Assembly (NCBI RefSeq): GCF_000015585.1
Contig: NC_008789.1
Span: 690,001 to 722,000, forward strand
Direction: 5' to 3'
DNA: 32,000 nucleotides
Origin: Halorhodospira halophila SL1
GTDB lineage: Bacteria; Pseudomonadota; Gammaproteobacteria; Nitrococcales; Halorhodospiraceae
Positions 1,398 through 25,237 of the stretch are shown piece after piece. The notes beneath the pieces were generated by a model. It was not told the DNA's origin and did no database searches. It worked only from the letters and a program-made list of their open reading frames with translations. A program made the translations under genes and the position numbers. How positions within the stretch are numbered: the stretch's first letter is position 1; each line of letters opens with the position of its first letter.

Positions 1398-1596
1398 TAT
1401 GGAATAGTCCTCAAGTGGGGGGCATGTTCCACGGGAAGTGGGGTGCCGATTCCACGCGAAGCGGGTGTGCTGTTCCACCGGATGTGGGGGGCCGATTCCA
1501 CGGGATGTGGTGGGGCCGTTCCACGGCAATGGGGTGGATAGGCGCGGCGATCGGGGATACTTGGACTCTCCCCACCACCTGCTCCGGAGAGAGTCC

Positions 1597-3139: not shown

Positions 3140-3167
3140 TCGCCCCCACCACGGAGAGATCCTGATC

Positions 3168-3932: not shown

Positions 3933-4083
3933 GCCGGTGGCCTGATGTGGACCTACTGCCCGGGAAGGCACCCCAATTCAGTGGAATGGCCCCACCACTT
4001 CCCGTGGAACGGGCCCCCCACATGCGGTGGAACGGGCACCCCTCATCACGTGGAACAGGCCACCCACTTGACTGGAATCCCCA

Positions 4084-4888: not shown

Positions 4889-4944
4889 GGATCACCTCGT
4901 CGAATGGTAGCTATTGAGGTGTCCACGGTTGGTGGGCAAGACCA

Positions 4945-5983: not shown

Positions 5984-6726
5984 CAATCCCTTTTCCAACA
6001 GGGCTAGGTTCGGACGTACCAGTGGCTCAGTGCTCGAACGCTGCTCGGTGTCTTAATCCCTTTTCCAACAGGGCTAGGTTCGGACCCGGCATGAACGGCA
6101 AGGGAACCCAAAGTACCGCCGTCTTAATCCCTTTTCCAACAGGGCTAGGTTCGGACCCATGCTTGTCAGTCAACCCAGCCTTACCGAAGCCGTCTTAATC
6201 CCTTTTCCAACAGGGCTAGGTTCGGACGTACCAGTGGCTCAGTGCTCGAACGCTGCTCGGTGTCTTAATCCCTTTTCCAACAGGGCTAGGTTCGGACCCG
6301 GCATGAACGGCAAGGGAACCCAAAGTACCGCCGTCTTAATCCCTTTTCCAACAGGGCTAGGTTCGGACCCATGCTTGTCAGTCAACCCAGCCTTACCGAA
6401 GCCGTCTTAATCCCTTTTCCAACAGGGCTAGGTTCGGACTCGTGGACCTCGGGCGGCCGAGCGATCCCACTTTGTCTTAATCCCTTTTCCAACAGGGCTA
6501 GGTTCGGACTTGGTGGGAGCATGGAGGTCGGTGTCGATGGCCACTTCGTCTTAATCCCTTTTCCAACAGGGCTAGGTTCGGACCAAAACACGGTGAGCAT
6601 GTTGGTCATCCGTCAGGTGTCTTAATCCCTTTTCCAACAGGGCTAGGTTCGGACAGAGTTTGTTCGCCTACCCTACGACCCGGAGACCTAGTCTTAATCC
6701 CTTTTCCAACAGGGCTAGGTTCGGAC
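5984..6726 (-). CRISPR. CRISPR array 1: 11 repeats (trailer-most truncated by IS), 10 spacers of 34-38 nt
   Basis: 36-nt repeat, plus-strand gtcttaatcccttttccaacagggctaggttcggac. The transcribed sense is inferred as GTCCGAACCTAGCCCTGTTGGAAAAGGGATTAAGAC, giving the 8-nt tag ATTAAGAC. Repeats start at 5984 (partial), 6050, 6121, 6192, 6262, 6333, 6404, 6474, 6548, 6619 and 6691. Confidence 0.97.
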
Positions 6727-7187: not shown

Positions 7188-8150
7188 CTACGCCTCGGGA
7201 ATAGTTTGGGCGCCGTGGTGGGCGCACTCGGCGGCTAGGGCCTGAGCGGCGCGGCGCTGCCAGCGTCGATGGAGCCCGGCATGGCGTTCCCAGCAGCCGA
7301 AGAAGGTCTGCCGTGCAGCCTTGCCTAGTCGTACGCCCTCGGTGCTGTTGGTGAAGTCCGTGCGCTGGAGCGTCTCGCTCGCGAATAGCTCCCAGGTCAG
7401 CCGCTCCACCCGGGCCCGGGCGATCTCCGTGAGATCGCAGGCCAAGGAGTCTCGCCCCCAGGCAGGCTCGTGCAGTACGCCGATGGCCGGATCGAGGCCG
7501 GCAGCGGTGACGGCCCGCAGTGCATCGCCGTGCGCGAGGGTGTAGCCGAGCGAGAGGACGGCGTTGACGGGATCCCGGGGTGGCCGGCGATTTCGCCCGG
7601 AGAAGCCTAGCGCTTCGGCGAAGAGAGCGCCGTAGCCGCGGAAGAAGGCCGCCGCGGCCGTACCCTCCTGCCCCCGCAGTTGCTCACCGGCGGGCGCCTC
7701 GCGGCGCACGGTCGCCTGGGCCGCCTCGATCTCGCGGTGGGCAGCCGTGAGCGGCTGGCGTTGATCAGGACGCCGGTATAGCGCACTCGCGAGGAGCCGC
7801 TGCTGCCCGGCCAGACGCAGTCGCACGAGGCGGCGCGCCCAGGCCTGGCGCTCAGCCTCGAGGTGGATGAGCCTGTACTGGCCGAGGCGGCGGACGGCAT
7901 CGCCATGGCCCTCGCTGCGGAGGAAGGCGCTGCGCCGCTGTCCACGGCTCGGCATGAAGACCAGGCTGACGCCGCTCTCGGCGAGAGTAGTGAGCACGCC
8001 GCTGCTCAGCTCGACCTGGCCAATGACGATCAGTCGGTCGATGAGGCTCAGCGGCACCGAGCGGGGCTGGGCCTCCGGTTCCCGAATGGTGAGCGCCTTG
8101 TGCGCGAGCTCCAGGCGCGTCCGGCGCCGGTCGATGTAGAGGGTGCCCAC
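7188..8150 (-). CDS. cas1: CRISPR integrase Cas1
   Basis: Starts (GTG)GTLYIDRR. Contains RNRRPPRDPVNAVLSLGYTL and GVLHEPAWGRDSLACDLTE, which are typical Cas1 motifs. Confidence 0.92.
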   Translation of the reverse strand: MGTLYIDRRRTRLELAHKALTIREPEAQPRSVPLSLIDRLIVIGQVELSSGVLTTLAESGVSLVFMPSRGQRRSAFLRSEGHGDAVRRLGQYRLIHLEAERQAWARRLVRLRLAGQQRLLASALYRRPDQRQPLTAAHREIEAAQATVRREAPAGEQLRGQEGTAAAAFFRGYGALFAEALGFSGRNRRPPRDPVNAVLSLGYTLAHGDALRAVTAAGLDPAIGVLHEPAWGRDSLACDLTEIARARVERLTWELFASETLQRTDFTNSTEGVRLGKAARQTFFGCWERHAGLHRRWQRRAAQALAAECAHHGAQTIPEA

Positions 8151-8260: not shown

Positions 8261-8575
8261 CTAGTCGGCCTCCGGGAATTGCGGTCTCAGGCTTAACCCC
8301 GGCAACACCAGGCCTGGCGGCAGGGGCGCCGGACCCTGGTAGGTGCCCTCCCCTTGAGGCTGCAAGGCGTAGATCCGCACGTCGTCGACGCGCTCGTCGA
8401 TCTCGCGGCGCAGAGCCTCGGCGAGCTGATGCCGGGCGCTCGGGACGAGGCGGCAGTAGAAAACGCTGTACTGCAGCGGCACGCCCCATTCCTTCATCAG
8501 CCGATGGACACGGCGCAGGCGGGCCGGCTTGCGGATGTCATAACAGACCAGGTGATCGATGGCGCGCTCACCCAT
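8261..8575 (-). CDS. cas2: Cas2
   Basis: Reads MGERAIDHLVCYDIRKPARLRRVHRLMKEWGVPLQYSVFYCRL. The ATG at 8575 overlaps the upstream ORF's stop by 8 nt. Confidence 0.85.
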   Translation of the reverse strand: MGERAIDHLVCYDIRKPARLRRVHRLMKEWGVPLQYSVFYCRLVPSARHQLAEALRREIDERVDDVRIYALQPQGEGTYQGPAPLPPGLVLPGLSLRPQFPEAD

Positions 8576-9365
8576 GGGCGGGCTCCTCCCGGCGCATGCG
8601 CTGCCAGCTGACGTAGTATTCCTCCGTGAGCGCCTGCAGGTGCCGATGAAGCTGGCTGGGCACGGGGCGCGCGAGCTGGAGCTCAAGGAACTCGACACGC
8701 CGGCGCTCAGTAAGCTCTGGGGGCTGATGGCGTCGCCACCGGACGAAGCGCAAGAGCAGGGGGATATAGAGGCAACGGCGCAGCTCGCCTTCTAGGTCTT
8801 CACCTTGGGCGGCGAGCGCGCGGCAGGCAGGTCGCCAGCCGCTGCGGTGCAGCTCCGCCTGTAGCCAGCTTTGCAACCCCCCGCCGAGCGCCGCGATCTC
8901 GTGCGGGATCCAGCGCAGCGGGCTGAGCTTGCGCAGGTAGTCCTCAAGCCGTCGGCAGGCGCTCTGGAAATCGCCGCGGGGACCGCGCCGGAAGACAAGG
9001 CTCCAGGCGTGGCGGCGCTGGGCGTCTCGCCACCAGTGGTAGGGGACGAGCCCGGTCTGTGTCTCAATCAGCGAGGTCAGCTCCTGGACGGGCCGATTCT
9101 GCGGCTCCTGGGCCGGCTGCAGGCAGGCCGTGGGCTGGCCGTGGCCGTCCTGAAAGTGGACGACAGCACCCGCCTCGACCAGGGCGAGGCAAGCCTGGAG
9201 GAGCCCCTCGCCGGCGCTGCCGCGCACGACGGCACGGCTAACCCGGGCGAGCGGGACGTACTCCGCGGCCTTGCCGGGGCGGCACAGGCGCAGCGCCGAG
9301 CCCTCGTACCGGACCTGGATCCGCTCGGCGTTGAGGTAGAGGGTACGCGGCTCGAGGCGGGGCAT
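8568..9365 (-). CDS. Short divergent Cas1-like protein (265 aa), catalytic motifs not evident
   Basis: The N-terminus parallels the Cas1 beta-domain: TLYLNAERIQV...VPLARVSRAVVRGSAGEGLLQACLALVEAGAVVHF vs Cas1 TLYIDRR...VPLSLIDRLIVIGQVELSSGVLTTLAESGVSLVF. The C-terminal half is helical but lacks the RNR..P.D..N..LS.GY and G..H motifs. An agggagg RBS is present. Confidence 0.55.
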   Translation of the reverse strand: MPRLEPRTLYLNAERIQVRYEGSALRLCRPGKAAEYVPLARVSRAVVRGSAGEGLLQACLALVEAGAVVHFQDGHGQPTACLQPAQEPQNRPVQELTSLIETQTGLVPYHWWRDAQRRHAWSLVFRRGPRGDFQSACRRLEDYLRKLSPLRWIPHEIAALGGGLQSWLQAELHRSGWRPACRALAAQGEDLEGELRRCLYIPLLLRFVRWRRHQPPELTERRRVEFLELQLARPVPSQLHRHLQALTEEYYVSWQRMRREEPAHG

Positions 9366-9378: not shown

Positions 9379-9660
9379 TTAGCCGAAGTAGAAGAAGTCT
9401 GGATCGGCGGGCACCTCGGCAGCGCCGAGGGTGACCAGGGGGCGGCGCGGCTCCAGCGGCAGGAGCGCGAACTGGTCCTCAGTGGGGTCGATGACCTGCG
9501 CCATTTCCGTGTGCAGCGCCTTGTGCTCGGCGGGGGTCAGCCAGCACTCATAGGCCGACTTCTGGCCGCCGCTGGCGTATCCCTTGATGACCCTTACGGC
9601 GCGGGATAGCCGGCGTGGGCAGCGAACATCGTAGGCGGCGAGGTAGAGTTTGCGGCGCAT
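9379..9660 (-). CDS. cas2: Second Cas2
   Basis: Reads MRRKLYLAAYDVRCPRRLSRAVRVIKGYASGGQKSAYECWLTPAEHKAL, the Cas2 ferredoxin-fold pattern. Confidence 0.8.
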   Translation of the reverse strand: MRRKLYLAAYDVRCPRRLSRAVRVIKGYASGGQKSAYECWLTPAEHKALHTEMAQVIDPTEDQFALLPLEPRRPLVTLGAAEVPADPDFFYFG

Positions 9661-9884
9661 CGGACCGCCCTCCGCGTGATTGCTGGTGCCTAGGCTGGCA
9701 TCCAGCGTCGCGCAGGGCGGGAGATGGGAAGCTTGCCGCCGGGATGGCTCTCTCGAACGTCGCCAGGACCCCCCAAGGCAGCCGCCTGGCGACCACTACT
9801 CCGCGGAGGGTGGCAGAAATTGGTTGAAGACACTGCTCAGCGGCTCATGGAGCACTTAAGGGCTCTGCTCAGCGCCAAGCGCAA

Positions 9885-11042
9885 TCAGCAGGGCTCCACG
9901 TGCGCCTTCCACTCCCGGACGATATCCCGCAGCCGGGGCAGCTCATCCGGGCCAATGAGTCGGATCCGATGCTGCCGGGCGCGCTCTCGCATAATATCCG
10001 TCGGCTGCCGGGCGCTGACCATCCAACTGGTACCGAAGAAGCCGCGCAGGTTATCGCCGATGCTGTCCAGCTTGTAGAGTTGCTGGTCATCGGCGGCTTC
10101 GTTGCCGTGGCGCAGGGTCTTGCACTCCACCACCAACAGACGATTGACATGGATGGCAACCACATCTAGTTCGTTGCGGGCCTTGTCGGTACCTTCCCAG
10201 GTGCCTTCCACCCCCATGGCCACATCGTCGAGCCCCTCATCCCGGAGCCGGTGGTAGACATACTCCTCCAGCCAGCCGCCGTTGAGAAAGCGAGTCCGCT
10301 CCTCGTCGAGGAAGGTCACCTCGGCACCACCCTCCCAGTCCAGCAAGCCCTGGTCGCGGAGCCAGCCCAGATTATTGGCCCAGCGGCCGTACGGTGGGTC
10401 ATCGAAGGCCTGGTCACGCGCGACCAGCCGCCCCTCCCTGTCCAGAGACCGGGAAGCGACCGCATTCAGCGCACCCAGGAAATCGCCATGGTCCCTGGCG
10501 ACCTCCGCTAGCCTCTTGGCCACCTGCTTGCGCTCGCCAGCCTCACGCTGCCAGTCCTCGTCCGCGGAGGCAGCACGGTGGTAGCGAAACCCCTGGGCGC
10601 GCAGGCTGATTGGCACGTCAAGCACCGAGGTCTGTGGCGTCGGCGCCTCGGCCCGTTCATTCCCCTCCGGCAAGTGCTCCAACCGGCCATGGGCGGTATC
10701 GGTGTAGATCCGGCGGTGTACACTATCCCGCAGCATCTCGAGAAACCCCAGAGCCATGAGCTTGTTGCCGCCCGTCAGATTGAGGACCACCTCGTCCGCC
10801 GCCGGCAACTCTTCCAAGATCCCCAGGGCGAATTCGTGCAACTGGGGCAGGTCGGCATCCGGGGCATTCTCGAAGGTCTGAACCGCAATACCGGCCTCTT
10901 CTTCCAGCTTGCGGAGCAACTGAGCCTGCCCGGCCATGGCCGGCGTAACAATGAGAGCCGCATGCTCCGGGCGCTCCATGAGCGCGGGTATCAGATTGCC
11001 GGCAAGCTGGGCAGACACCAGCTGGATGTGGAGTCGGGTCAT
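9885..11042 (-). CDS. can2: CARF + PD-(D/E)xK nuclease effector (Can2/Card1 type)
   Basis: N-terminal CARF with NLTGGNKLMA. C-terminal ELDVVAIHVNRLLVVECKT gives the D...ExK motif. An aaggag RBS lies before ATG 11042. Confidence 0.8.
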   Translation of the reverse strand: MTRLHIQLVSAQLAGNLIPALMERPEHAALIVTPAMAGQAQLLRKLEEEAGIAVQTFENAPDADLPQLHEFALGILEELPAADEVVLNLTGGNKLMALGFLEMLRDSVHRRIYTDTAHGRLEHLPEGNERAEAPTPQTSVLDVPISLRAQGFRYHRAASADEDWQREAGERKQVAKRLAEVARDHGDFLGALNAVASRSLDREGRLVARDQAFDDPPYGRWANNLGWLRDQGLLDWEGGAEVTFLDEERTRFLNGGWLEEYVYHRLRDEGLDDVAMGVEGTWEGTDKARNELDVVAIHVNRLLVVECKTLRHGNEAADDQQLYKLDSIGDNLRGFFGTSWMVSARQPTDIMRERARQHRIRLIGPDELPRLRDIVREWKAHVEPC

Positions 11043-11071
11043 GGGATTGGTCTCCTTCGAGTGATAGGGCA

Positions 11072-11383
11072 TCAGTTGCCCGGTTCCACTTCGCCCAGGC
11101 TCTCTACACGGTAGGCCTCGAGACGGGCGCCAGCGGCCTCCATGTCGTCGGCGGTTAGTTCTTGGCCGCGCAACTGCGGTGGGAGATCCAGCGACAGATG
11201 GAGATACCGCCCACCACGCTCGCATACAGCGGCCGCAAGATGCACGGGGAGCGTTCCGATCACCCTATCCCCAACCTCCAGCTCGGCCGGATTTAGATGA
11301 TCCACCTGCCGATCAACCGCCAGGCCCCGGCGCTGGGCCCATTCCACAGCCCCCGAGTGACGGGTCACGAACCAAGTCGTCAT
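11072..11383 (-). CDS. csx16: Csx16 (VVA1548-family CRISPR-associated protein), copy a
   Basis: 103 aa. Reads MTTWFVTRHSGAVEWAQRRG...GDRVIGTLPVHLAA...YLHLSLDLPPQLRGQELTADDM. About 55-60 percent identical to the copy at 23008-23310. Confidence 0.7.
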   Translation of the reverse strand: MTTWFVTRHSGAVEWAQRRGLAVDRQVDHLNPAELEVGDRVIGTLPVHLAAAVCERGGRYLHLSLDLPPQLRGQELTADDMEAAGARLEAYRVESLGEVEPGN

Positions 11384-11615
11384 GGTGGTGCTGTCTCCTT
11401 TTCCTTACCTTCCTTTGGGTCAGCCGGCCTCTTTACCTCGTTGGCAGCCGCCTCAGGGTGCCCGTCACGGTAGACCCTTTTCGGCGCCAGAGAGCGGCTT
11501 GCAAGCTTACGACCACCAGCTCCTCTGGCCCTGCAAACTTGCGGTTTGTAAGGTCAACCATGACACTAAGCTAGCCTTGCGGAGGATCGCTCGAAACGCA
11601 CACGGAGTGCTGCTC

Positions 11616-12749
11616 ATGACCGCCGACACCGACGCGCCTCATACCCTCCTCTGCGTCACCGGGCTGACGCCACAGGTGGTCACCGAGACGCTCTACGCCC
11701 TCGCGCAGGAGGGGGCACACGCCCTTCCGGATCGCATCGAGGTCATCACCACGACCGAGGGCCGGCGCCGCCTGGCGTTGACCCTGCTCGCCGAGCACGG
11801 CGGCCACGGCTACCTGGACCGACTTTGCGCCGACTACGGTATCGACCGCGGCGCCCTCGCCTTCGACGTGGACAGTATCCACGTTGTCGGCGGCGCCGAC
11901 GACGAGCCCCTCGCCGATATCGTCACTGAGGCGGACAACGCCGCGGCCGCCGACCGGATCCACGAGCGCATCCGCACCCTGACCGAGCAGCCCGGGCGGC
12001 TGCACGTCTCCCTCGCCGGGGGACGCAAGACCATGGGCTTCTACGCCGGTTACTCGCTCTCGCTCTACGGCCGGGGGCACGACCGGCTCAGCCACGTGCT
12101 GGTCAATCCGCCCTTCGAGTCGCACCCGGACTTCTTCTACCCACCACCGACGCCGGCAACCCTCCAGCTACCCGGGCGCAACGACATCATCAGCACCGCC
12201 GAGGCCGAGGTGCGTCTCGCCGAACTGCCTTTCGTCCGGCTGCGCGAGGAGCTCGGCGAGGAGCTGCCGCATCAGGGGCTATCCTTCAGCGAGGCGGTCG
12301 AGCGCGCCCAGCAGGTACTGATCCCGCCCCAATTGACCATCGATCTTACTGAGCGCACCGTCACGCTCCAGGGGCAGCCGATCACCCTCTCGGCAACCCA
12401 CTTCCTCTGGCTGACCTGGCTGGCCGACCGCGCTCGGCAAGAGGCCCCAGCGATCGCCTTCGACGAGGCCGCGGTTGATGAACTGACGGGCTACGCCGAC
12501 TGGCTTGAAGGTCGCCTCTCACAGCTGCATGAGAGCCTGGCCTCGGCGCGCAAGGAGATCGAGCGAGAAGGCCGCTCGAACTACTTCGAGCGCACCCGCT
12601 CGCGACTCAACAAGGCCATCGCCGAGCGCAGCGGCCTGCCCACCCGGGCGGCAGCGCGCTACCAGATCCACACCCACAGCAGCCGGCCCCAGACCACCTA
12701 CGGCCTGAAGCTCGAGCCGGAGCAGATTCGTATCGAGGGGGAGCCGTGA
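11616..12749 (+). CDS. CARF-domain protein, Cas_NE0113-like, with uncharacterised C-terminal domain
   Basis: Reads LLCVTGLTPQVVTETLYAL...HVSLAGGRKTMGFYAGY...HVLVNPPFE. The C-terminal 150 aa or so are helical with no recognisable nuclease motif. A ggag RBS lies before ATG 11616. Confidence 0.7.
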   Translation: MTADTDAPHTLLCVTGLTPQVVTETLYALAQEGAHALPDRIEVITTTEGRRRLALTLLAEHGGHGYLDRLCADYGIDRGALAFDVDSIHVVGGADDEPLADIVTEADNAAAADRIHERIRTLTEQPGRLHVSLAGGRKTMGFYAGYSLSLYGRGHDRLSHVLVNPPFESHPDFFYPPPTPATLQLPGRNDIISTAEAEVRLAELPFVRLREELGEELPHQGLSFSEAVERAQQVLIPPQLTIDLTERTVTLQGQPITLSATHFLWLTWLADRARQEAPAIAFDEAAVDELTGYADWLEGRLSQLHESLASARKEIEREGRSNYFERTRSRLNKAIAERSGLPTRAAARYQIHTHSSRPQTTYGLKLEPEQIRIEGEP

Positions 12750-12826
12750 GCCGGCAAGCTTGCAGGCATGCTGACCACGTTGATCGCCGGGCGATACTGC
12801 GGCCACGCAAGAGAGCGAAGAGCACC

Positions 12827-13816
12827 ATGGAGCAACGACACCTGACCCTGGAGCTGCTGACCCCGACCTTTCTCGGGGATGCTCAGCAGACCGCCGCCTG
12901 GCGGACGCCGCCAATCAAGGCGCAGCTGCGCCGCTGGTGGCGGGTCGCCGCGTTCGCGCAGGGGATGCGCCTACCCGAGCTACGCGCCCTGGAAGGACGG
13001 CTTTTCGGCGACGCCGCCGGGCAGCAGGGCCGCAAGAGCCAGGTTCGGCTGCGCCTACAGCCGCATAAGGGACGGCCGGGCACGCAGCACAACAACGCGT
13101 GGCGCCAGCAAGCCAATCAACAGCCGTTACGGATGAATAACGGCTTGCCGGCCGATGGCTACCTCGGTTTCGGCCGGGTCAAGACCAAAGGTGCTAACGA
13201 GACCGCCCTGCCACCCGAGGAGAAGGCCGAGCTGCGCCTGGCCTGGCCGGCGGAAGCCGAGGGCGCCGAGGCCCTCGACGAGGCCCTCGGGCTCTTCCAT
13301 CGGCTCGGCAGCCTCGGAGGACGCAGCCGCAACGGCTGGGGCGCCTGCCACCTGCACGGCGCCGAGGCCATTGGCCTGGACGCCTACAGCCGTCCCTGGG
13401 AAGAGGCCTTGGAAGAGGCCTGGATCCACGCCCTCGGCAGGGATGGAAACGGCCTGCTGCTGTGGTGGACCCCGCCGTGCAAGAGCTGGGAGGCCGCCAT
13501 GCGACGGCTCGGCGACCTGCGCAAGGGCCTGTGCGGCGAGGCGGGGGCGCTGCGGCCGCTGCTCTCCTGGCCGGTCACAGGCCAGCAGCAGCAGGGTCTC
13601 GACAACCAGAACCGGATCCCCAACACCCTGCAGCTTAAGGTTGTCCGGGACGAGCAGGGGCAGCTGCGGGGACAACTCGCGCACCTCCCCTGCCGACCCG
13701 AGCCGAAGATCTGGGATGCGCTACCCAAGGAGGTGCGCGACGACCATCCTGCGCTCTGGCGCAACGCCCACGCCTTCCTCGACCGGCACAGCGATCTCGA
13801 GCGGGTGCACGCATGA
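12827..13816 (+). CDS. cmr1: Cmr1 (RAMP)
   Basis: Reads LTLELLTPTFLGDA...PPIKAQLRRWWR. G-rich loop is GSLGGRSRNGWG. First gene of a cmr operon with overlapping stops and starts. Confidence 0.85.
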   Translation: MEQRHLTLELLTPTFLGDAQQTAAWRTPPIKAQLRRWWRVAAFAQGMRLPELRALEGRLFGDAAGQQGRKSQVRLRLQPHKGRPGTQHNNAWRQQANQQPLRMNNGLPADGYLGFGRVKTKGANETALPPEEKAELRLAWPAEAEGAEALDEALGLFHRLGSLGGRSRNGWGACHLHGAEAIGLDAYSRPWEEALEEAWIHALGRDGNGLLLWWTPPCKSWEAAMRRLGDLRKGLCGEAGALRPLLSWPVTGQQQQGLDNQNRIPNTLQLKVVRDEQGQLRGQLAHLPCRPEPKIWDALPKEVRDDHPALWRNAHAFLDRHSDLERVHA

Positions 13817-16746
13817 CGGAGGCAACCCTCATGGACATTGATCTGGCCCGGAACAAGCTGCTCGCCCGACTGCACGACCCGGCGGAGAAGGCGCTGGTCC
13901 TGCTGCGCGATCCCGCCGGCCACGAGGGGGGCACCGTGCGCACCCTCATCGAGGAGATCCTCGGCGAGGTGCCGCAGGCGGCCTGGGCGCCCGTGCGCAA
14001 GGCCGACCGCTGGGCCTCGGCGGCGGACCGGCCGCAATTCCCCCGTGAGCGCGACGGCGATCGCTTCGCGCGCTGGAGCCAGGTGCGCTTCGCCGAGCAG
14101 CCGGTGCTGCGCCATCCGCTCACCGGCGAGAAGATCGATCTCGGCGAGCACGGCAAGCTGCGGGAGATCGAGCTCGACACGCTCAAGGCCGGCAGCCTCG
14201 AGCATTTCCGGCACCTGATCCATCGTGACGAGGCGGGGAGCGTCGATTCCTGGCGGACCCTGCTCGCGCTGTGGCGCTTCGGCCCCGAGCCGGCAACGAG
14301 CGGCGATGCGACCGGGCTCGGCGAGCTGTGGCGCTATCTGCCGGCGGATACCCGCATCCCGGACCACACCATCTGGCAGCACCTGGACCTGAGCTCCGCG
14401 CTCACCGGCGCCTTCGCGGGCGATGGCCAGGGCCGCTGCGCCCTGCTCAACGTCACCCTCGGCCCGGTGCAGGAGCTGATCGCCGCCGCCCGGACGACCT
14501 CGGACCTATGGGCCGGCTCGCACCTGCTCGCCCGGCTCGCCTGGGAGGCGATGCGCGTCGTCTGCGAGCGCCTCGGCCCCGACGCCGTGCTCTTCCCGCA
14601 GCTGCGCGGCGTCCCGCAGGTCGACCTCTGGCTCCTCGAGCAGGGGCTGGCGCCGGAGCTCTTCGCGAAGGAGCCCTGGAACGAGCGCACCGTCACCGAC
14701 GCCAACCCGCTGTTCAGCGCCGCCCTGCCCAACCGCTTCCTCGCCGTGGTCCCGGCGGATCAGGCGGAGGCGATCGGCCGCGCCATCGAGGCGCACCTGC
14801 ACGAGTGGGTCGCCGAGACCGCCGAGGGCGTGGTCAGCGATCTGCTCAGGGCCGTCAACCTGCACACCGATCCGACAACACCCGCCTATCAGCAGGCACG
14901 GGAGCAGCTGGCCGGATTCCCTGAGGTCTACTGGTCGGCCGTGGGCTGGGACGAGATCGCCACGGACGCCAACGGCGAGCCCGAGGCGGACCGCCTCGCC
15001 GAGGCCCTGCGCCCCTTCTATGAGCCGCAGGCCGAGGCCCCCGGCTTCCTCAGCTCCGAGGCCTGGCGCGTACTACAGCGGCCCATCGAGGTCATCGATC
15101 CGGAAGCGGGGACGCCGGCGACCTTCTACCGGCCCAATCCCGGCGTGCTCTACCCCGCGCTCTACGAGCTCAGCGAGCGAGTGATGGGCGGCGTCAAGGC
15201 GACCCGCCCCTTCGCCGCGCAGCACGAGGGCGGCTATCGCTGCTCGCTGACCGGCGAGGTGGAGTGGCTGACCCACGATCGCAGCCACCTCGACCTGCCG
15301 CCGGGCCAGCGGGAAGGGCACGACACCCTCTGGAGCCTCGTTGCCAAGCGCCACCCGAGCTGGGCGCGCAAGGGTGAGCACCTCGGGGCGCTGGCCGCCC
15401 TCAAGCGGCTCTGGCCGCAGCGCTTCTGCCGCGAACTCGCCGGGACCCTCGGGCAGGAGCAGACGCCGCGCTTCGTCGTCTCCACGCACACCATGGCGCT
15501 GGCCACCTCCCTGGCCCGCGCTGCCGAGGAGCCGAATCCCGCCGGCGGGCTCAGCGCCGAGCAGGCCGAGGCGATCCGCAACGCCGATCGGGTTGCGCTA
15601 CCGCGGCGGCTGGCGCAGCGGCTACACCACCTCGAGCACGGTGAGCTCCTCGCCCGGTTGCCCGGCTGGGTCGAGCAGCAGCGCGAATCCGACGACGGCG
15701 ATGAGACCGCCGCCCGGCAGGCGATCCGCAAGGTCACCGGCACCGAGGCCGAGGCCTACTACGCCCTGCTGCTCATGGACGGCGACCGCATGGGGGCCTG
15801 GCTCTCCGGCGGCGACGGGACGACCATCCCCTACCGGGCGGCCTTCCACCCCGACCTGGCGGACGCAGTGGACACACGCTTCGGCGACCATACGGTCCTG
15901 CAGGCGTACCTCGACACGCCGCGGGCGGTCTCACCGGCCCGGCACCTGGCCATCTCCGGGGCGCTGAACGACTTCTCCACCACCCTCGCCCGCAGGGTGG
16001 TCGAGGAGTGTCACCACGGCCGCGTCCTCTATGCCGGCGGCGACGACCTCATGGCCATGCTGCCCACTGGCGATCTGCTCAGCGCCATGCGCGAGCTGCG
16101 CGACGCTTACTCGGGCACGGCTACCAGCGGTGAGGCCGAGGAAGAGGACGCCTGGTGCCGCAACGGCTTCATCTATCGGCAGGACCGGCTGTACCTGACC
16201 ATGGGGTCGCAGGCCACCGCCTCGATGGGGGCGGTGATCGCCCACCATAAGACCCCTCTGACCGCGGCCCTCGCTGAACTGCGCCAGGCCGAGCAGCGGG
16301 CCAAGAACGAGGGCGGGCGCGACGCCTTCGCCCTGTCCGTTCTCAAGCGCAGCGGCGGCGCCCTGCGCCACGTCGGCCGCTGGGCACCAGCAGCGGGTAT
16401 CGACGAGATGAGCGCCCTGCGCGACTTCGCCGAGGCGCTCCATGCCAACCCCGAGGCCTCCCGGCGCGCCGCCTACAACGTCGCGGGCTGGCTCGCCGAT
16501 CTCCCCGAGCCCGACACCCTCCCCCCGGAGGACGGCGTCGCCGGCTACCTCGAGGCGGTGCTGCACTACCAATTCTGCCGCCAGGGCCTCGAGCAGCAGG
16601 GGCAGCCCATCCACGCGCGGCGGCTCGGATCGCTCGCCAGCGTCTCGCCAACCGGCGACGAGCTGAGCAGCGCCGCCAAGATCCGCGACCGTCTCAGCCA
16701 CCTCGTCGGCGTGGCCGAGTTCCTCGCCCGCGAGACCCGGAGGTAG
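13813..16746 (+). CDS. cas10: Cas10/Cmr2 large subunit
   Basis: 977 aa. N-terminal LHDPAEKAL. Contains YYALLLMDGDRMGAWL and the cyclase motif LYAGGDDLMAML. ATGA overlap with cmr1. Confidence 0.92.
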   Translation: MTEATLMDIDLARNKLLARLHDPAEKALVLLRDPAGHEGGTVRTLIEEILGEVPQAAWAPVRKADRWASAADRPQFPRERDGDRFARWSQVRFAEQPVLRHPLTGEKIDLGEHGKLREIELDTLKAGSLEHFRHLIHRDEAGSVDSWRTLLALWRFGPEPATSGDATGLGELWRYLPADTRIPDHTIWQHLDLSSALTGAFAGDGQGRCALLNVTLGPVQELIAAARTTSDLWAGSHLLARLAWEAMRVVCERLGPDAVLFPQLRGVPQVDLWLLEQGLAPELFAKEPWNERTVTDANPLFSAALPNRFLAVVPADQAEAIGRAIEAHLHEWVAETAEGVVSDLLRAVNLHTDPTTPAYQQAREQLAGFPEVYWSAVGWDEIATDANGEPEADRLAEALRPFYEPQAEAPGFLSSEAWRVLQRPIEVIDPEAGTPATFYRPNPGVLYPALYELSERVMGGVKATRPFAAQHEGGYRCSLTGEVEWLTHDRSHLDLPPGQREGHDTLWSLVAKRHPSWARKGEHLGALAALKRLWPQRFCRELAGTLGQEQTPRFVVSTHTMALATSLARAAEEPNPAGGLSAEQAEAIRNADRVALPRRLAQRLHHLEHGELLARLPGWVEQQRESDDGDETAARQAIRKVTGTEAEAYYALLLMDGDRMGAWLSGGDGTTIPYRAAFHPDLADAVDTRFGDHTVLQAYLDTPRAVSPARHLAISGALNDFSTTLARRVVEECHHGRVLYAGGDDLMAMLPTGDLLSAMRELRDAYSGTATSGEAEEEDAWCRNGFIYRQDRLYLTMGSQATASMGAVIAHHKTPLTAALAELRQAEQRAKNEGGRDAFALSVLKRSGGALRHVGRWAPAAGIDEMSALRDFAEALHANPEASRRAAYNVAGWLADLPEPDTLPPEDGVAGYLEAVLHYQFCRQGLEQQGQPIHARRLGSLASVSPTGDELSSAAKIRDRLSHLVGVAEFLARETRR

Positions 16747-16749
16747 CCC

Positions 16750-17901
16750 ATGGCCGAGTACCGCTACATCGAGCCCCAGGACGTCCTCTTCTTCCGCGGC
16801 AACCGCCTCTTTGGCGAGCCCGGCAACGCCGGCGCCGCCCTCATGCCGCCCTGGCCCTCGGTCTTCGCCGGGGCCCTGCGCAGCGCCATGCTCAGCGCCG
16901 CCGGCGCGGACCCGGCGCAGCTGCGCAGCGGCGAGCTGCCTGCCCCGCTCGACACGGTGCTCGGCACCCCCGAGGAGCCGGGGACCTTCACCCTCACCGG
17001 CGTGACGCTGGCTCGCCGGCAGTCGTCCGGCACCGCCGAGCCCCTCCACCCCCTGCCGGCGGACCTGAGCGTCGAGCGTGATGAGGCCACAGGCGAGTGC
17101 GCGGTCCATCGCCTGACGCCGCAGCCACTGCCCGCCGGCGTCGCCAGCAGCCAACCCCTGGAGCGCCTGCCGGTGCTCCGGCGCAGCGACCGCGGTAAGC
17201 CGGCCGCCGGCTACTGGCTCACCCATAGCGGCTGGCAGCGCTACTGCCAGGGCGAGCCCCCACCGGCTGAGGCCCTCGTTCACCGCTCGGCGATCTGGAG
17301 CAGCGACCCGCGCCTGGGCATTGCCCTGAAGCCCGAGCAGCGCACGGCGGCCGAGAGCCAGCTCTACACCACCGAGGGCATCCGGCTGTGCGAGGGATAC
17401 GGCTTTCTCGCCGCCATCGCCGGCTCCGACCCGACCAGCCTGCCTAAGCAGGCAACCCTGCGCCTCGGCGGCGACGGCCGCGGCGCGTTCATGAGCGCCG
17501 TCGCAGCCCCGGTCGAAACCTCGCCGGAGCCGGCCGCCATCGAGGCAGAGGGCCGCCTACGGATCGTACTCACCACGCCCGGCATCTTCCCGGGGGGGTG
17601 GCAACTCCCCGGGCTCGACGCCAATGGCCTCTGGCACTATCCCGGCGGCCGGGCGCGGCTGGTCGCCGCTGCTGTGCCCCGCGGCCAGGTCATCAGCGGC
17701 TGGGATCTGGCTCACCACCGGCCCAAACCCGCCCAACGTGCGGCCCCAGCCGGGACCGTCTACTGGCTCGAGGCGCTTGAGGGCGGGCTCAAGCCGCTTC
17801 GCAAGCTTGCCGAATCCGGTCTCTGGGGCATGACCCCGGAGAATGAAGACCCAGCACGGCGAGCCGAGGGCTTCAACCGCTTCGCCATCGCCAACGCCTG
17901 A
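16750..17901 (+). CDS. cmr3: Cmr3
   Basis: Reads YRYIEPQDVLFFRGNRLFG...PPWPSVFAGALRSA. Its position after cas10 also fits. Confidence 0.85.
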   Translation: MAEYRYIEPQDVLFFRGNRLFGEPGNAGAALMPPWPSVFAGALRSAMLSAAGADPAQLRSGELPAPLDTVLGTPEEPGTFTLTGVTLARRQSSGTAEPLHPLPADLSVERDEATGECAVHRLTPQPLPAGVASSQPLERLPVLRRSDRGKPAAGYWLTHSGWQRYCQGEPPPAEALVHRSAIWSSDPRLGIALKPEQRTAAESQLYTTEGIRLCEGYGFLAAIAGSDPTSLPKQATLRLGGDGRGAFMSAVAAPVETSPEPAAIEAEGRLRIVLTTPGIFPGGWQLPGLDANGLWHYPGGRARLVAAAVPRGQVISGWDLAHHRPKPAQRAAPAGTVYWLEALEGGLKPLRKLAESGLWGMTPENEDPARRAEGFNRFAIANA

Positions 17902-17915
17902 AGGGATCGCAGACC

Positions 17916-18830
17916 ATGTTCGAGAAGAACGCCGCCCTATTCCTCTACAGCGTCAGCCCCGTCCACATGGGGGCTGGCACCGCGACCGGGGTGATCGACA
18001 ACCCCATCCAGCGCGAGGTGCACACGCAACACCCGAGCTTCGCCGGCTCCGGGCTCAAGGGCGCCATCCGCCACGGCTTCAAGGCCCTTGGCGGCAACCC
18101 CGACCAGGCCGATCAGCTCTTCGGCCCCCGCCAGGGCGATCTCCACGCCGGCGCCGTGAGCCTCGGGGACGCACAGCTCGTCGCCCTGCCGGTGCGCACC
18201 CGCCGGGAAGGCTACGCCTACGCCACCTCGCCATTGGCCCTCGCCCGGCTGCAGCGGCTGCTCCACCAGGCCGGCCTCCAGCCCGAGTGGACAGTGCCCA
18301 CGCTGCCCCAGGGCGAGGCGGCTCGCGCGCCGGCGGCCGTCACGCCCGAGGGGCTCGAGGCCCTCACCGCCGACGGCGGCCGGCTCCACTTGGAGGTCTT
18401 CGAGCTCGCCGCACAGGCCGAACCCGGCGTAGCCGCCATCGGGCAGTGGCTCGCCGAGCACGCCCTCAGCAAGGACCACGGCGAGTACTTCCGGAACAAG
18501 CTCGCGCGGGACCTAGTGATCCTCCCGGAGACCGAGCTCAACTACTTCAGCCGCAACGCCATGGTGGTCGAGCCCCACGTGCGCATCGATCCGAAAACCG
18601 GCACCGCCGATGGCAGTGGGCTGTTTTATACCGAGAACCTGCCGCCGGAGAGCCTGCTCGCCGCGCCGGTGATGGCCAGCGGCGACCGCAGCGGTGAGCG
18701 GGAGCTCGACAGTGCCGCTGTCATGGCGCAGCTCCATACCGCCCTCGACGGCAACACGCTGCAGATCGGCGGCGACGCCACCACCGGCCGGGGGCTGGTC
18801 ACGGCCCGACTCGTGGAGAAGGTATCATGA
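17916..18830 (+). CDS. cmr4: Cmr4 (backbone RAMP, target RNase subunit)
   Basis: Reads PVHMGAGTATGVIDNPIQREVHTQHPSFAGSGLKGAIRH. C-terminal G-rich loop is IGGDATTGRGLV. Confidence 0.9.
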   Translation: MFEKNAALFLYSVSPVHMGAGTATGVIDNPIQREVHTQHPSFAGSGLKGAIRHGFKALGGNPDQADQLFGPRQGDLHAGAVSLGDAQLVALPVRTRREGYAYATSPLALARLQRLLHQAGLQPEWTVPTLPQGEAARAPAAVTPEGLEALTADGGRLHLEVFELAAQAEPGVAAIGQWLAEHALSKDHGEYFRNKLARDLVILPETELNYFSRNAMVVEPHVRIDPKTGTADGSGLFYTENLPPESLLAAPVMASGDRSGERELDSAAVMAQLHTALDGNTLQIGGDATTGRGLVTARLVEKVS

Positions 18831-19216
18831 CAACGCCCATGACCCTCGAGCAGCAGCGCGCCGCCGATGCCTGGCAGGCTGCGGCGGCCTGCACGGACCC
18901 CTACGCCAAGCTCGCCAAGGGGGCGCCGGCGCTAATTATGAACAGCGGTCTGATGCAGACCCTGGCTTTCCTTGAAGACAAGGGCGAGGACCACCACCGA
19001 GCCCTCGCTCGACAGCTGCGGCGGTGGATTGTGCGGCAGCACCCGGAGCTGCTAAGCACCCGCGGCGATAGCGCGGACCCGGGCTATGAGGCAATCATGG
19101 AGGCGCTGCTCCACGCCGAGCCGCGCACCTTCCAGGCCGTGACCGCGGAGGCCCTCGCCTGGCTGCGCTGGGTCCGCCAGATCGCGCCCACTCGCGTCGA
19201 GGAGCGTTCGTCATGA
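18827..19216 (+). CDS. cmr5: Cmr5 (small subunit)
   Basis: 129 aa and helical. Reads APALIMNSGLMQTLAFLEDKG. Overlaps both neighbouring genes. Confidence 0.8.
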   Translation: MTTPMTLEQQRAADAWQAAAACTDPYAKLAKGAPALIMNSGLMQTLAFLEDKGEDHHRALARQLRRWIVRQHPELLSTRGDSADPGYEAIMEALLHAEPRTFQAVTAEALAWLRWVRQIAPTRVEERSS

Positions 19217-20424
19217 GCCGCGCCGCCGTTCCCGCCTACCTCGGTGAGGACTTCCGGGAGGCCGCTCCGGGCCACCGCTTTGCGCTCTATCTCAGCGTCT
19301 GGGATCAGCAATGGAAGAAGCAGCGGGGCGGTGCGATCGAGGAGCTGCTGAAGCTGAACGACGACGATCGGAAGCGGCTGGGCGCTTTGATCGAGCGCCA
19401 ACGCCGGCTACTCCAGCATGAGGAGAGCGCACAACCAGGGAGCACCCTGAACCTGCCGGCCACGAGCACGAGCCCCTTCACAACAGGGCTCGGCATGGCC
19501 CACCCGCTGGAGAACGGCTTCGCTTTTCTCACCCCCTACGGCCTGCCTTACCTCGCGGGAAGCGGCGTCAAGGGTGTCCTGCGCCAGGCGGCGCGGGAGC
19601 TCGCCGAGGGGGGTGAGTTCGAGGATCCCGGGCGCGATTGGGACTGGCCCGAGATCGAGGCACTTTTCGGGAGCCCCGGCGAGGACGAAGGCGGCGTGAC
19701 AGGCCGGCGCCGAGGCGCCCTAAACTTCTGGGACGTCTTCCCCGAACCAGGGCGAGGGCAAGACCTGGCCTGGGAGGTCATGACACCCCATCAGGGCAGC
19801 TACTACCAGGACGCTACCGGCCAAACCGCACCGCACGATAACGGCGCGCCCGTGCCGATCTACTTCCTCGGTATCCCGGCCGGCAGCGGTTTCCGCTTTC
19901 ATATCCAGTGCAATCGGGCCCTGTTACGGCAGACGGGACCGACACTGCTTGAGCCAGCGGGCGAGGACGGCGATCGAGCACGCTGGCAGGTTCTGCTCGA
20001 AACCCTCTTCGCGCACGCCTTCGAGTGGCTCGGCTTCGGCGCCAAGACGGCGGTCGGCTACGGCGCGCTGTCCATCGACGAGAAGACCCGGCGGCACGAG
20101 GCCGAGGCGCGCGAAAAGATCCGGGCCGAACAGGCACGCAAGGAACAGCTTGCGAGCTTGCCGCCCGGGCAGCGTCGCGCGGAAGAGCTGCTTGAGCAGC
20201 GCCAAGACCCCAGCTATCCGGCGCACCGCTTCTTGCTCGAACAGCTCGAAGCCGGTGCAGTAGCCGCCGAGGAGCAAGCGGCCCTGGCGCAGGTTGCGCT
20301 CGACTACCTCGCGCAAGACCGTGAAAAGGTTCGTAAGACGAAGAAAGCCAAGCAGAAGCTGCCGAAACTGGACGAGGAAGAGGTGCAACTTCAGCGCTTC
20401 GTCGACGAGGAAGGCACAGGGTGA
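19213..20424 (+). CDS. cmr6: Cmr6 (RAMP) with about 117-aa charged C-terminal extension
   Basis: Reads PYLAGSGVKGVLRQAAREL. G-rich loop is GFGAKTAVGYGAL. This is followed by a K/E/R/Q-rich helical tail. Confidence 0.85.
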   Translation: MSRAAVPAYLGEDFREAAPGHRFALYLSVWDQQWKKQRGGAIEELLKLNDDDRKRLGALIERQRRLLQHEESAQPGSTLNLPATSTSPFTTGLGMAHPLENGFAFLTPYGLPYLAGSGVKGVLRQAARELAEGGEFEDPGRDWDWPEIEALFGSPGEDEGGVTGRRRGALNFWDVFPEPGRGQDLAWEVMTPHQGSYYQDATGQTAPHDNGAPVPIYFLGIPAGSGFRFHIQCNRALLRQTGPTLLEPAGEDGDRARWQVLLETLFAHAFEWLGFGAKTAVGYGALSIDEKTRRHEAEAREKIRAEQARKEQLASLPPGQRRAEELLEQRQDPSYPAHRFLLEQLEAGAVAAEEQAALAQVALDYLAQDREKVRKTKKAKQKLPKLDEEEVQLQRFVDEEGTG

Positions 20425-21335
20425 TTCGACTCCATCCGCTGCAGCTGACCTTCGAGGCGCAGGATGCGCTGGTGCTGCCGGCGCAGCCGGGGACCTTGTG
20501 GCGTAGCGCCATCGGGGCGCGGCTGCGAGCCGACGCCTGCATCACCGGCGCCTCGCAGTGCCGCGGGTGCCGGGTCGCCGAGCGCTGCGCCTACGCGCAG
20601 CTCTTCGAGCCGCCGCGCCGGCATGCCGGCCTCGCCCCGCGCTTTCGCGATCCACCTCGCCCCTGGGTGATCGCCCCTGGCCCCGGCGGGCAGCGGGTGG
20701 CCCCCGGCGAGCACCTCGAGCTCGGTCTCACCCTCATGGCCGATGGCCTGGCGTACTGGCCCTCCCTCTATCGAGCCCTTCAGCGGCTGCGGCTCGGGCC
20801 TGCCCCGCTGAGGCTGGTTCGTGCCGTCAGCCACCCGCCCCAGGGCGAGCCGGCCCCGGCGCCAGCCAAGCCGCTGCCGGGCTATCGGCCCGAGCCGCCC
20901 GCGCCGCCGCCGGAGGGCTCAGTCCAGATCACCCTCGACAGCCCCCTTCGGTTGCAGCGCAACGGCCGCCCGCTCACAGCCGAGGCATTTTCCCCCGAAC
21001 CGCTGATCGCCGCGCTATTGCGCCGGATCACGAGCCTCGATGAAACGGCGCCCGAGGTCGACCATGGTGCGCTAACCCGTCATGCGCAAGAGGCCGTGGC
21101 CCTGCGTGATCCGGTGTTGCGCTGGTACGACGCCGATCGATCCTCGAGCCGCCAGGGCCGGCGCGTACCGCTCGGCGGGTTGGTCGGGCACTTCCGTCTT
21201 GAAGGCGCGCTCGCCCCCATCTGGCCGTGGCTTTGGACAGGGCAGTGGGTTCATGCCGGGAAAAGCGCCGTCATGGGCCTTGGGCGGTTTCGCTTGGTCG
21301 AAAGTGAGGAGCGAGGCGGTGTACTTGGGATCTAG
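20421..21335 (+). CDS. cas6: Cas6-type crRNA endoribonuclease (DUF2276/COG5551-like)
   Basis: GTG start overlapping the cmr6 stop. N-terminal Cys cluster is CITGASQCRGCRVAERC. C-terminal G-rich loop is HAGKSAVMGLGRF. Confidence 0.7.
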   Translation: MIRLHPLQLTFEAQDALVLPAQPGTLWRSAIGARLRADACITGASQCRGCRVAERCAYAQLFEPPRRHAGLAPRFRDPPRPWVIAPGPGGQRVAPGEHLELGLTLMADGLAYWPSLYRALQRLRLGPAPLRLVRAVSHPPQGEPAPAPAKPLPGYRPEPPAPPPEGSVQITLDSPLRLQRNGRPLTAEAFSPEPLIAALLRRITSLDETAPEVDHGALTRHAQEAVALRDPVLRWYDADRSSSRQGRRVPLGGLVGHFRLEGALAPIWPWLWTGQWVHAGKSAVMGLGRFRLVESEERGGVLGI

Positions 21336-21565: not shown

Positions 21566-21671
21566 GTCTGAGACGAGCCCTGCTTGAAAAGGGATTAAGA
21601 CAAGGTCTTGATGTGACCCATGGTGGCCACATCCTGTCTGAGACGAGCCCTGCTTGAAAAGGGATTAAGAC
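21566..21671 (+). CRISPR. CRISPR mini-array 3: 2 repeats, 1 spacer (34 nt), variant repeat
   Basis: GTCTGAGACGAGCCCTGCTTGAAAAGGGATTAAGAC occurs at 21566-21601 and 21636-21671. It differs at 6 of 36 positions from the array 1/2 repeat and keeps the same 3' half. Confidence 0.85.
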
Positions 21672-22132: not shown

Positions 22133-23011
22133 TTAACGGTCTTCGTGATCGTATTCGATATCGATCACGCTGATGCGAGCACCAACGGCCTTGTCGACGC
22201 GCACATACTGGCAGCGCCGCCCTTGAGCCTGCGTGAATAAGGCAGCAGCCACCGAGGCCTTCTTGGTCCCCCCGGTGATGTCCACAAGAACATCTCTCTC
22301 CCGTAGCCGGAGCCCCCGTGTTTTGATCAGACCGTTCCAGACCGATTCGATCGCCCGCCAGACCGCGCTGACGTCCTCAAAATCGCAGCCGTGTGCCATT
22401 TCGGTTGAGTGCGTATCCAGACCCTCGACCGTCACCTGCCGATCCGCCCCGTCAAGGAGGCTTTCGACGAGCTGCCGAAATACCGGAAACTGCTTGCACG
22501 ATCCATGGGTCCCGGAGGAGTAGATGACCACGACGCGCTCGAGCTTGGGCAAGTGGGCGCGGATGGCCTCCAGAGGCATCCTCCAGTTGCTCAGCGCATC
22601 GTTCACCAGCCCGAGGTCCGTAGAGCTATTCAACGGACGCACTCCCCCCTTCGCGAGGTCGTTGACCAAGTTGTTAGGGTTCGGGTGAGCGCTCAACAGA
22701 AGGATCAGTACCCGGCGCGGTTGCGGGTTCTCCTCGTCGGTCGCGTGCATAGACGGCGGGATTTCATGGTAAATCAGATAGATCCAAACCCCGATTAATA
22801 CCAGTACCGCAGCGATAAGGGCCGCCGTGTATCCCCACTGGTCGGCGAGAAAGCCCCCCCCATCTTCCAGGAGCCGCAAGAGCCCACTCGACAGGGTGTC
22901 GATGGATAGCAGCACAAGCAGAACAACGACCAGCGCCTTGCCGGTTCGAAATCCCAGTCGGCGGCAGGTGCGAATCAGCTCACGCCCAAGATCTCCGGGT
23001 ACCCTTTTCAT
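22133..23011 (-). CDS. Membrane-anchored CARF protein (two predicted TM helices + CARF), Cam1-like
   Basis: Hydrophobic segments are ALVVVLLVLLSIDTLSSGLLRLL and YTAALIAAVLVLIGVWIYLIY. The C-terminal Rossmann-like domain reads RVLILLLS...VVVIYSSGTHGS...VLVDITGGTKKASVAAAL. ATGA overlap with csx16b. Confidence 0.7.
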   Translation of the reverse strand: MKRVPGDLGRELIRTCRRLGFRTGKALVVVLLVLLSIDTLSSGLLRLLEDGGGFLADQWGYTAALIAAVLVLIGVWIYLIYHEIPPSMHATDEENPQPRRVLILLLSAHPNPNNLVNDLAKGGVRPLNSSTDLGLVNDALSNWRMPLEAIRAHLPKLERVVVIYSSGTHGSCKQFPVFRQLVESLLDGADRQVTVEGLDTHSTEMAHGCDFEDVSAVWRAIESVWNGLIKTRGLRLRERDVLVDITGGTKKASVAAALFTQAQGRRCQYVRVDKAVGARISVIDIEYDHEDR

Positions 23012-23310
23012 CTGTCAGCCTTGACCTGCTGCACGTGATAATACGCGAGTCGGGCATCCATGCCGTCCATCTCATCGGCACTGAGCTCTCGGCCCCGGCG
23101 CTCCGGAGGGATATCCAGAATCAAGTGGCAATACCACGCGCCACGGCAACAGACCCCTTCGGCAAGGTGCACGGGGAGTGTACCGATCACTGTATCGCCG
23201 GCTGCGACCTGCTCGACATCCAGGTGCTCGACCTGCCGATCGACATCGAATCCCTGCCGCTTAGCCCACTCTGTAGCCCCGGGATGACGGGATACGAACC
23301 ATACTGTCAT
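23008..23310 (-). CDS. csx16: Csx16 (VVA1548 family), copy b
   Basis: Reads MTVWFVSRHPGATEWAKRQG...GDTVIGTLPVHLAE...YCHLILDIPPERRGRELSADEM. Confidence 0.7.
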   Translation of the reverse strand: MTVWFVSRHPGATEWAKRQGFDVDRQVEHLDVEQVAAGDTVIGTLPVHLAEGVCCRGAWYCHLILDIPPERRGRELSADEMDGMDARLAYYHVQQVKADR

Positions 23311-24987: not shown

Positions 24988-25237
24988 GAACCTAACCCCT
25001 TTCCAACAGGGCTAGGTTCGGACAAGAAGAGGCTAAGGCCATCATCGAGGTCCTCGGCGAGTCTTAATCCCTTTTCCAACAGGGCTAGGTTCGGACGAGC
25101 TTGGCAAGGAGATCAAGGAGGAGGAGTCCCGTCTTAATCCCTTTTCCAACAGGGCTAGGTTCGGACAAGGGACACTCCGGAAAGAGTGGCCCCGTTGGGA
25201 GGTCTTAATCCCTTTTCCAACAGGGCTAGGTTCGGAC
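24988..25237 (-). CRISPR. CRISPR array 2: 4 repeats (trailer one degenerate), 3 spacers
   Basis: Same 36-nt repeat as array 1, at 25061, 25131 and 25202. A degenerate copy, gaacctaacccctttccaac..., lies at 24988-25023. Spacers are 37, 34 and 35 nt. Confidence 0.93.

Follow-up and report, generated by a model that had tools for sequence, protein, structure and literature searches.

Csx16 is a ring nuclease specific for cyclic tetra-adenylate (cA4): in vitro, cA4 was fully degraded and the cyclic tri- and hexa-adenylates (cA3 and cA6) were not (Hoikkala et al., bioRxiv 10.1101/2024.09.24.614671 = PMC12409355). One representative Csx16 was assayed, and it was active alone. Makarova et al. (2020; summarized in PMC8284326) had earlier predicted a ring-nuclease function. 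According to Hoikkala et al., 96% of ring-nuclease instances lie in effector-containing loci, and there only with cA4-dependent effectors; a ring nuclease accompanies Can1-2 in 66% and Cam1 in 81% of loci, and more than one ring nuclease occurs in only ≈ 4% of ring-nuclease-positive loci (PMC12409355). Zhu et al. (2021; PMC7969007) noted csx16 beside can2 in place of crn2 and proposed that Can2, which has no intrinsic ring-nuclease activity, "outsources" this duty to a neighbouring gene. Both Can2 and Cam1-type effectors are activated by cA4, Csx16–Csx1 fusions are known, and two ring nucleases together with one membrane effector have been described in the Cap1 locus of Parafilimonas terrae (Csx3 and DUF1874). 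Here we analysed 32,000 nucleotides (nt) of Halorhodospira halophila SL1 (contig NC_008789.1, positions 690,001 to 722,000; hereafter the window), which hold a GC-rich type III-B (Cmr) CRISPR-Cas locus with two csx16 genes, each placed directly ahead of a gene for a CARF-domain effector. A preliminary description of this DNA had called the function of Csx16 poorly defined. That statement is out of date in view of the biochemistry cited above; "off-switch", one of the functions it offered, was the right class.

The two csx16 genes lie on the minus strand at 11072..11383 (csx16a, 103 amino acids (aa)) and 23008..23310 (csx16b, 100 aa). Both proteins covered the whole Pfam profile PF09652 (Cas_VVA1548) with almost identical scores (csx16a, E = 4.2e-41, 139.5 bits; csx16b, E = 5.4e-41, 139.1 bits; cutoff 25), scored 110.2 and 106.9 bits against the NCBIfam profile TIGR02620 (cutoff 46.35), and matched the PADLOC Csx16 models at E values of 1e-49 to 1e-50. 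The assignment of both small open reading frames (ORFs) to Csx16 was therefore correct. A family alignment of 77 sequences contained 16 invariant columns (H9, G11, A12, W15, D24, H29, L30, D39, G43, L45, L49, L63, P68, R72, G73 and L76). All of them are present in both window copies, including the polar residues H9, D24, H29, D39 and R72. By family, csx16a and csx16b thus encode predicted stand-alone Csx16 ring nucleases, and their sequences suggest that both are active.

The AlphaFold2 (AF2) model of Csx16a was of high quality (predicted local distance difference test score (pLDDT) of 91.9) and showed an alpha/beta fold. A Foldseek search with this model gave no PDB match at E ≤ 0.001; the best matches were weak (E ≥ 0.035) and were to Crn1-type ring nucleases (7z55 and 7ygh; Sis0455 and Sso2081) and to the CARF domains of Cam1 and Csm6. 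The modelled fold is consistent with the Csx16 assignment and supports it without proving it. A PDB sequence search returned no solved Csx16 structure.

The stop codon of csx16a (TGA, 11074-11072) is followed by an ATG at 11042, which is preceded by GGAG. The spacer is 29 nt. This ATG opens a gene for a 385-aa protein (9885..11042, minus strand) and is backed as the start by alignments to profiles, which set in at residue 2-3. The product matched PF09002 (E = 6e-63, 210.8 bits) and PF23400 (27.3 bits), both above cutoff, as well as the PADLOC model CARF4--CARF_PDDEXK (E = 7e-96). Its PDB matches included Can2 (7bdv, E = 1.4e-22), VC1899 and Card1; entry 6wxw was matched at E = 3e-12. The nuclease motif ELDVVAI...VVECKT can be read in the translation. 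Both the junction and the Can2/Card1-like identity of the downstream gene, a CARF plus PD-(D/E)xK nuclease, were as first described.

The junction between csx16b and the next gene (22133..23011, minus strand) reads gac aga tga aaa, an ATGA overlap, as had been stated. The overlapping gene encodes a 292-aa protein with two hydrophobic helices in the hydropathy profile (about aa 22-48 and 58-82), which are predicted to be transmembrane (TM) segments, followed by a CARF domain with the conserved motifs DITGGTK and NWRMPLEAI. This TM-CARF protein matched the PADLOC model PDLC01947 CARF8--CARF_TM with an E value of 2.5e-124. Using phmmer, we obtained no match at E ≤ 1 to PDB sequences, including the Cam1 chains 8t64-8t66. 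The AF2 model was of moderate quality (pLDDT of 75), and its best Foldseek matches were to the CARF domain of Cam1 (8t65/8t66; TM-score of 0.55-0.66 on the target, 0.62-0.66 for 8t65), together with Crn1 ring nucleases (Sso2081) and the CARF domain of Can2. These CARF matches were significant (E = 8.5e-5 for 8t66, up to 1e-3). Architecture and modelled fold suggest that the protein may be a Cam1-like effector that perturbs membranes.

The TM-CARF family is rare: eight clusters were found. Two loci, one in Halorhodospira halochloris (L081) and one on a read-archive contig (L087), preserve the arrangement of the window: each has a csx16 gene (100-aa product) that shares 4 nt with the ortholog of the TM-CARF gene; the Csx16 proteins are 76-78% identical to that of csx16b and the TM-CARF proteins 73-74% identical to that of the window. 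Other members of the family have a different ring nuclease. The gene ahead of a more distant homolog (L085, 1102-2288; 40% identity) encodes Crn2 (PF08960, DUF1874), and here too the overlap is 4 nt. In this gene slot, Csx16 is replaced by a non-orthologous ring nuclease. Crn2 is the convergent neighbour of the TM-CARF homolog in two further loci (L083, 8001-9310, and L084). Thioalkalivibrio sp. AKL10 (L082) has its genes arranged as TM-CARF, a 118-aa ORF, Csx1 and a single csx16. The family is thus always accompanied by a ring nuclease, and the family and position of that ring nuclease are interchangeable. This points to a need for enzymatic activity and not for a particular protein partner.

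To place the two pairs in a wider context, we surveyed csx16 neighbourhoods in 80 species-representative genome loci, those closest to a Csx16 query alignment headed by csx16a (the best 80 of ≈ 395 genome matches). Flanks of 6 kb per locus were annotated using hidden Markov models (HMMs) built from the effector clusters found, with cluster representatives named by PADLOC. An effector gene followed csx16 directly, on the same strand and within 200 nt, in 46 of the 80 loci. The gene lay directly downstream of an effector in 7 loci, and in 2 sandwiched loci that are counted among the 46; it was convergent with can2 in 3. An effector was present but farther off in 11 loci, 10 had none within 6 kb, and in 3 the contig left no room downstream. 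The partners in the 46 upstream cases were Can2 (20), a ≈ 175-aa SAVED-TM protein (13), Csx1 (CARF-HEPN; 8), CARF8-TM (3) and NE0113 (2). Csx16 and effector genes overlapped by 4 nt in 13 of these pairs, and the spacer was ≤ 30 nt in 32. The adjacency is far from chance, and the layout of csx16 first and effector second, tightly coupled, is standard for the family and is used with many different partners. Conserved adjacency, which the preliminary description had proposed to look for in other genomes, was thus found.

The Cmr interference operon of the window (cmr1, cas10/cmr2, cmr3, cmr4, cmr5, cmr6 and cas6; 12746..21335, plus strand) was recognized by Pfam matches to RAMPs, Cmr2_N plus Cas10 palm2, Cas_Cmr3 (E = 7e-103), Cas_Cmr5 and CRISPR_Cas6. 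The cyclase motif GGDD of Cas10 is intact in the translation (aa 742), so that signalling by cyclic oligoadenylates is expected. Building on the gene identities, the architecture of the pairs and their recurrence in other genomes, we infer operon structure and a rationale of dose matching. It is probable, in our judgement, that the locus is a cA4-signalling type III-B system with two separately acquired cassettes of ring nuclease plus effector, in which the dose of the off-switch scales with that of the effector and both ring nucleases draw on a shared cA4 pool. Recognition of target RNA would lead Cas10 to make cA4, which would activate both Can2, the nuclease arm that nicks DNA/RNA, and TM-CARF, the membrane arm. 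Dimers of both Csx16 proteins would then cleave cA4 to linear products, resetting the system and limiting self-damage. Since csx16 is the first gene of each putative bicistron, with a 29-nt spacer in one and ATGA coupling in the other, the off-switch would be made whenever the toxic effector is made and in proportion to it. Both Csx16 enzymes would share one diffusible cA4 pool and therefore be matched to effectors in dose without being effector-specific. Gain of a second effector cassette would bring a gain in ring-nuclease capacity too.

Several points weigh against this reading. Scans for promoter and terminator consensus around both pairs gave nothing above shuffled expectation; they provide no operon evidence, and the bicistrons remain putative. 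The survey flanks of 6 kb per locus would let more distant second copies of csx16 escape. The csx16b protein sits on a long branch and carries A51E, R59W and E89A at three near-invariant positions. The nearest neighbour of a Csx16 shared its partner in 38 of 51 cases, which shows some linkage at the level of the cassette, as inheritance of whole cassettes would lead one to expect. Finally, recurrent doubled pairs, found in the window and in one further locus, and natural fusions are also predicted by a model in which each Csx16 has a dedicated partner.

In that model, each Csx16 is bound or functionally restricted to its own effector, as when docking of Csx16b on the membrane protein TM-CARF gives a self-limiting pore, and the two arms are shut off independently. 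We regard this model as unlikely, although it is slightly more probable than the other alternatives. The ATGA coupling of csx16b to TM-CARF is kept in three genomes, and the partner sharing between nearest neighbours also speaks for it. Fusion families that join Csx16 to TM-CARF8, Csx1 and Can2 point the same way. The PADLOC model CARF8--CARF_CSX16_TM (390 positions) is matched by the Csx16s of the window at positions 3-93 and by TM-CARF at 252-375, and the fusion model CARF2--CARF_HEPN_CSX16 is matched by the Csx16s as well. A Can2 fusion was found in Accumulibacter sp. SCELSE-10 (L032:6001-7830; NZ_JAMTDX010000073.1), where a free csx16 overlaps by 4 nt a gene for a ≈ 505-aa in-frame Csx16–Can2 fusion. 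The fused Csx16-like N-terminal domain is 50% identical to the csx16a protein and has lost the invariant H29; the fusion is conceivably a self-limiting Can2; alternatively, its extra domain could serve as a degenerate sensor. The second doubled-pair Cmr locus (L091:7559-10778; JGI Ga0117932_1000636) has the order cmr6>csx16>SAVED-TM>cas6>csx16>csx1. One of its csx16 copies carries R8C and G38S at near-invariant positions.

Other observations speak against dedicated partners. Eight of the 80 loci have one csx16 for two effectors (L004, L036, L067, L074, L016, L053, L005 and L049), and the Thioalkalivibrio locus is a further case. Two of the eight, with the order csx16>CARF8-TM>can2 (L004 and L036), hold the very effector combination of the window in one operon headed by a single csx16; two others read csx16>SAVED-TM>can2 (L067 and L074). 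The latter two had at one stage been taken as near-identical Csx16s with different partners, an example that we dropped when HMM re-annotation gave the same order for both. Csx16 proteins with different partners can nevertheless be very similar: that of L053, paired with Can2, and that of L016, paired with Csx1, are 81% identical. Mean identity was 63.2% for same-partner pairs and 61.3% for different-partner pairs. Close relatives confound the permutation p value for this comparison (0.0025), and the difference is only 1.9 percentage points. A neighbour-joining tree contained no partner-specific clades of Csx16; 100 aa give a tree of poor resolution, and we used it only qualitatively, relying on pairwise identities instead.

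Gene position and chemistry add to this. The cmr operon of Ectothiorhodospira mobilis closes with csx16, which faces can2 in convergent orientation. One E. mobilis assembly (GCA_022228125.1, L088:215-18880) has a pair of distinct type III modules that run towards the same, single can2. Both have a csx16 of their own as the last gene, the two Csx16 proteins being 64% identical to each other, and one module starts with a SAVED-TM gene. The slot ahead of a TM-CARF gene can be occupied by Crn2 instead of Csx16. Csx16 acts on a small molecule that diffuses, and the enzyme that was assayed needed no partner in vitro. The proposal that Csx16 is an effector-specific rather than a global modulator is not supported in view of the two-effector operons with one csx16, the swap to Crn2 and the 81%-identical Csx16s with different partners. 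A more specific variant has an equally low probability in our estimate. In it, the two copies are cis-dedicated paralogs, each made in fixed stoichiometry with its effector and associated with it physically or in space; Csx16b would be held at the membrane on a TM-CARF pore, in the manner of the natural Csx16–TM-CARF8 fusions, and the nuclease and membrane arms would be shut off with different timing. The antitoxin or chaperone function that had also been offered for Csx16 was set aside, because nothing requires it and the interchangeability with Crn2 argues that enzymatic activity matters.

The cassette model also makes a statement about the origin of the two copies, which are 58% identical over 96 aa. 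This low value indicates that they did not arise by a recent duplication in place. The csx16a protein is 82-89% identical to orthologs in Thiohalospira and E. mobilis and 68-70% identical to distant proteobacterial Csx16s with other partners; for csx16b, the corresponding values are 76-78% for orthologs and 65-67% for other Csx16s. The earlier view of clearly diverged paralogs, as if each had co-evolved with its partner, thus stands for the divergence and fails for the co-evolution: each copy is nearer to foreign Csx16s (65-70%) than to its locus-mate. GC content is lower in both cassettes (61-66%; 58-66% over the stretches 9700-11500 and 21700-25300) than in the cmr core (70-75%), which is compatible with separate acquisition, not proof of it. 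Taken together, the sequences suggest a separate lineage for each copy and acquisition in the form of cassettes rather than duplication in place. In the L091 locus, the two copies are 77% identical and the locus-mate is the closest match in the set for one of them, so that this pair may be a local duplication.

It is also conceivable that one of the copies, most likely the faster-evolving csx16b, has been sub-functionalized and has altered kinetics or specificity, or serves as a sponge or sensor for cyclic oligoadenylates. The long branch and the three substitutions of csx16b would fit such a change, and there are precedents: Csx15 has little ring-nuclease activity (PMC12409355), and the fused domain of the Accumulibacter protein lacks its invariant histidine. 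However, csx16b keeps every invariant residue, R59W is also present in a csx16a ortholog (P0002), and the CARF domain of its partner resembles cA4-binding CARF domains. We consider this explanation unlikely, slightly more so than dedicated partners. Least probable of all is neutral redundancy, in which the second csx16 is a hitch-hiker of cassette acquisition whose copy number and position have no selective value: it would agree with the rarity of loci with more than one ring nuclease and with the many two-effector loci that manage with a single csx16, but both copies are intact and conserved, and the csx16b pair with its overlap has been maintained across genera at 73-78% protein identity.

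Between csx16a and the interference operon lies a gene of the NE0113 family (11613..12749, plus strand; start codon uncertain), which matched PF09623 (E = 2e-67), TIGR02584 and PADLOC CARF5--CARF (E = 7e-114). It diverges from csx16a across ≈ 230 nt. TIGR02584 carries the label ring nuclease in NCBIfam, a PADLOC model of the CARF plus WYL type was matched as well, and the gene is recurrent in many csx16 loci. Its product is a candidate for a third component that binds cA4, whether as regulator or as ring nuclease.

The adaptation genes start 224 nt downstream of can2, all on the minus strand: cas2 (9379..9660; Pfam CRISPR_Cas2, E = 6e-11), a divergent cas1-like gene (8568..9365; Pfam Cas_Cas1, E = 1.4e-3, below cutoff) and cas1 (7188..8150; Pfam Cas_Cas1, E = 1e-69). 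E. mobilis (L089) has the same adaptation layout, given there as cas2, cas1-like, cas1, cas2. Two CRISPR arrays lie on the plus strand, array 1 with 11 repeats (5985..6726) and array 3 with 4 repeats (24993..25237). A mini array with two copies of a 36-nt variant repeat (21566..21671) separates cas6 from the 3' end of the TM-CARF gene; its repeats are oriented opposite to those of the main arrays, and it is matched by the array region in H. halochloris (L081). At the equivalent site, that species has a convergent csx1, of which no remnant was found in the window.

Two small ORFs on the plus strand (23545-24638) diverge from csx16b and are kept beside the cassette in H. halochloris. The first encodes 176 aa with an N-terminus that resembles a signal peptide; the second encodes 175 aa with the internal repeat INPATGLPM.GS.DT.GNPYGT and a short match to Pfam TraS (E = 6e-11). 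The other flank of the locus holds four clustered tRNA genes (1-477) and insertion-sequence debris, made up of an IS21-type istA/istB pair (1438-3932) bounded by 23-bp tandem repeats (1413-1534 and 3966-4067) and fragments of IS3-type transposase (3978-5609).

The window is a doubling of a common, already described gene arrangement and reveals no new kind of regulator. As its components and logic have been published, the finding mainly confirms known biology. The doubled pair is uncommon, with at least one further instance (L091). The locus is a natural test case for deciding between ring nucleases as global sinks of cA4 and ring nucleases tuned to single effectors, and it bears on the balance that a cell strikes between a nuclease arm and one that depolarizes the membrane. 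The picture that emerges from the survey is that of a ring nuclease that is usually first in the effector operon, often translationally coupled, and open to exchange of one family for another (Csx16 and Crn2). Two further items stand out, a rare, uncharacterized family of CARF effectors with two TM helices and a natural Csx16–Can2 fusion. If partners were dedicated after all, cassettes of ring nuclease plus effector would be the true exchangeable units of accessory evolution in type III systems.

How does the locus compare with described systems? The csx16a>can2 pair is the arrangement reported for can2 loci by Zhu et al. (PMC7969007), and we see no material difference. The TM-CARF protein shares with Cam1 (Baca et al. 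2024; PMC10808066) an N-terminal TM region and a C-terminal CARF domain of the cA4 type, and the Cam1 CARF domain is the best structural match of its model; however, the two proteins have no similarity detectable by phmmer, and the window protein has 292 aa and two TM helices, compared with 206 aa and one for Cam1. The Csx16 fusions and the Csx1–Crn2 "fuse to defuse" effector tie a ring nuclease stoichiometrically to its effector, much as proposed here, and the domain order of the CARF8--CARF_CSX16_TM fusion is mirrored by the gene order csx16b>TM-CARF. The difference is that the window has separate, translationally coupled genes instead of one polypeptide. Both Csx16 proteins resemble the published one in Pfam/TIGRFAM family, length (≈ 100 aa), conserved residues and setting, a type III locus with cA4 signalling beside cA4 effectors. 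What differs is that the window carries two diverged copies in one locus.

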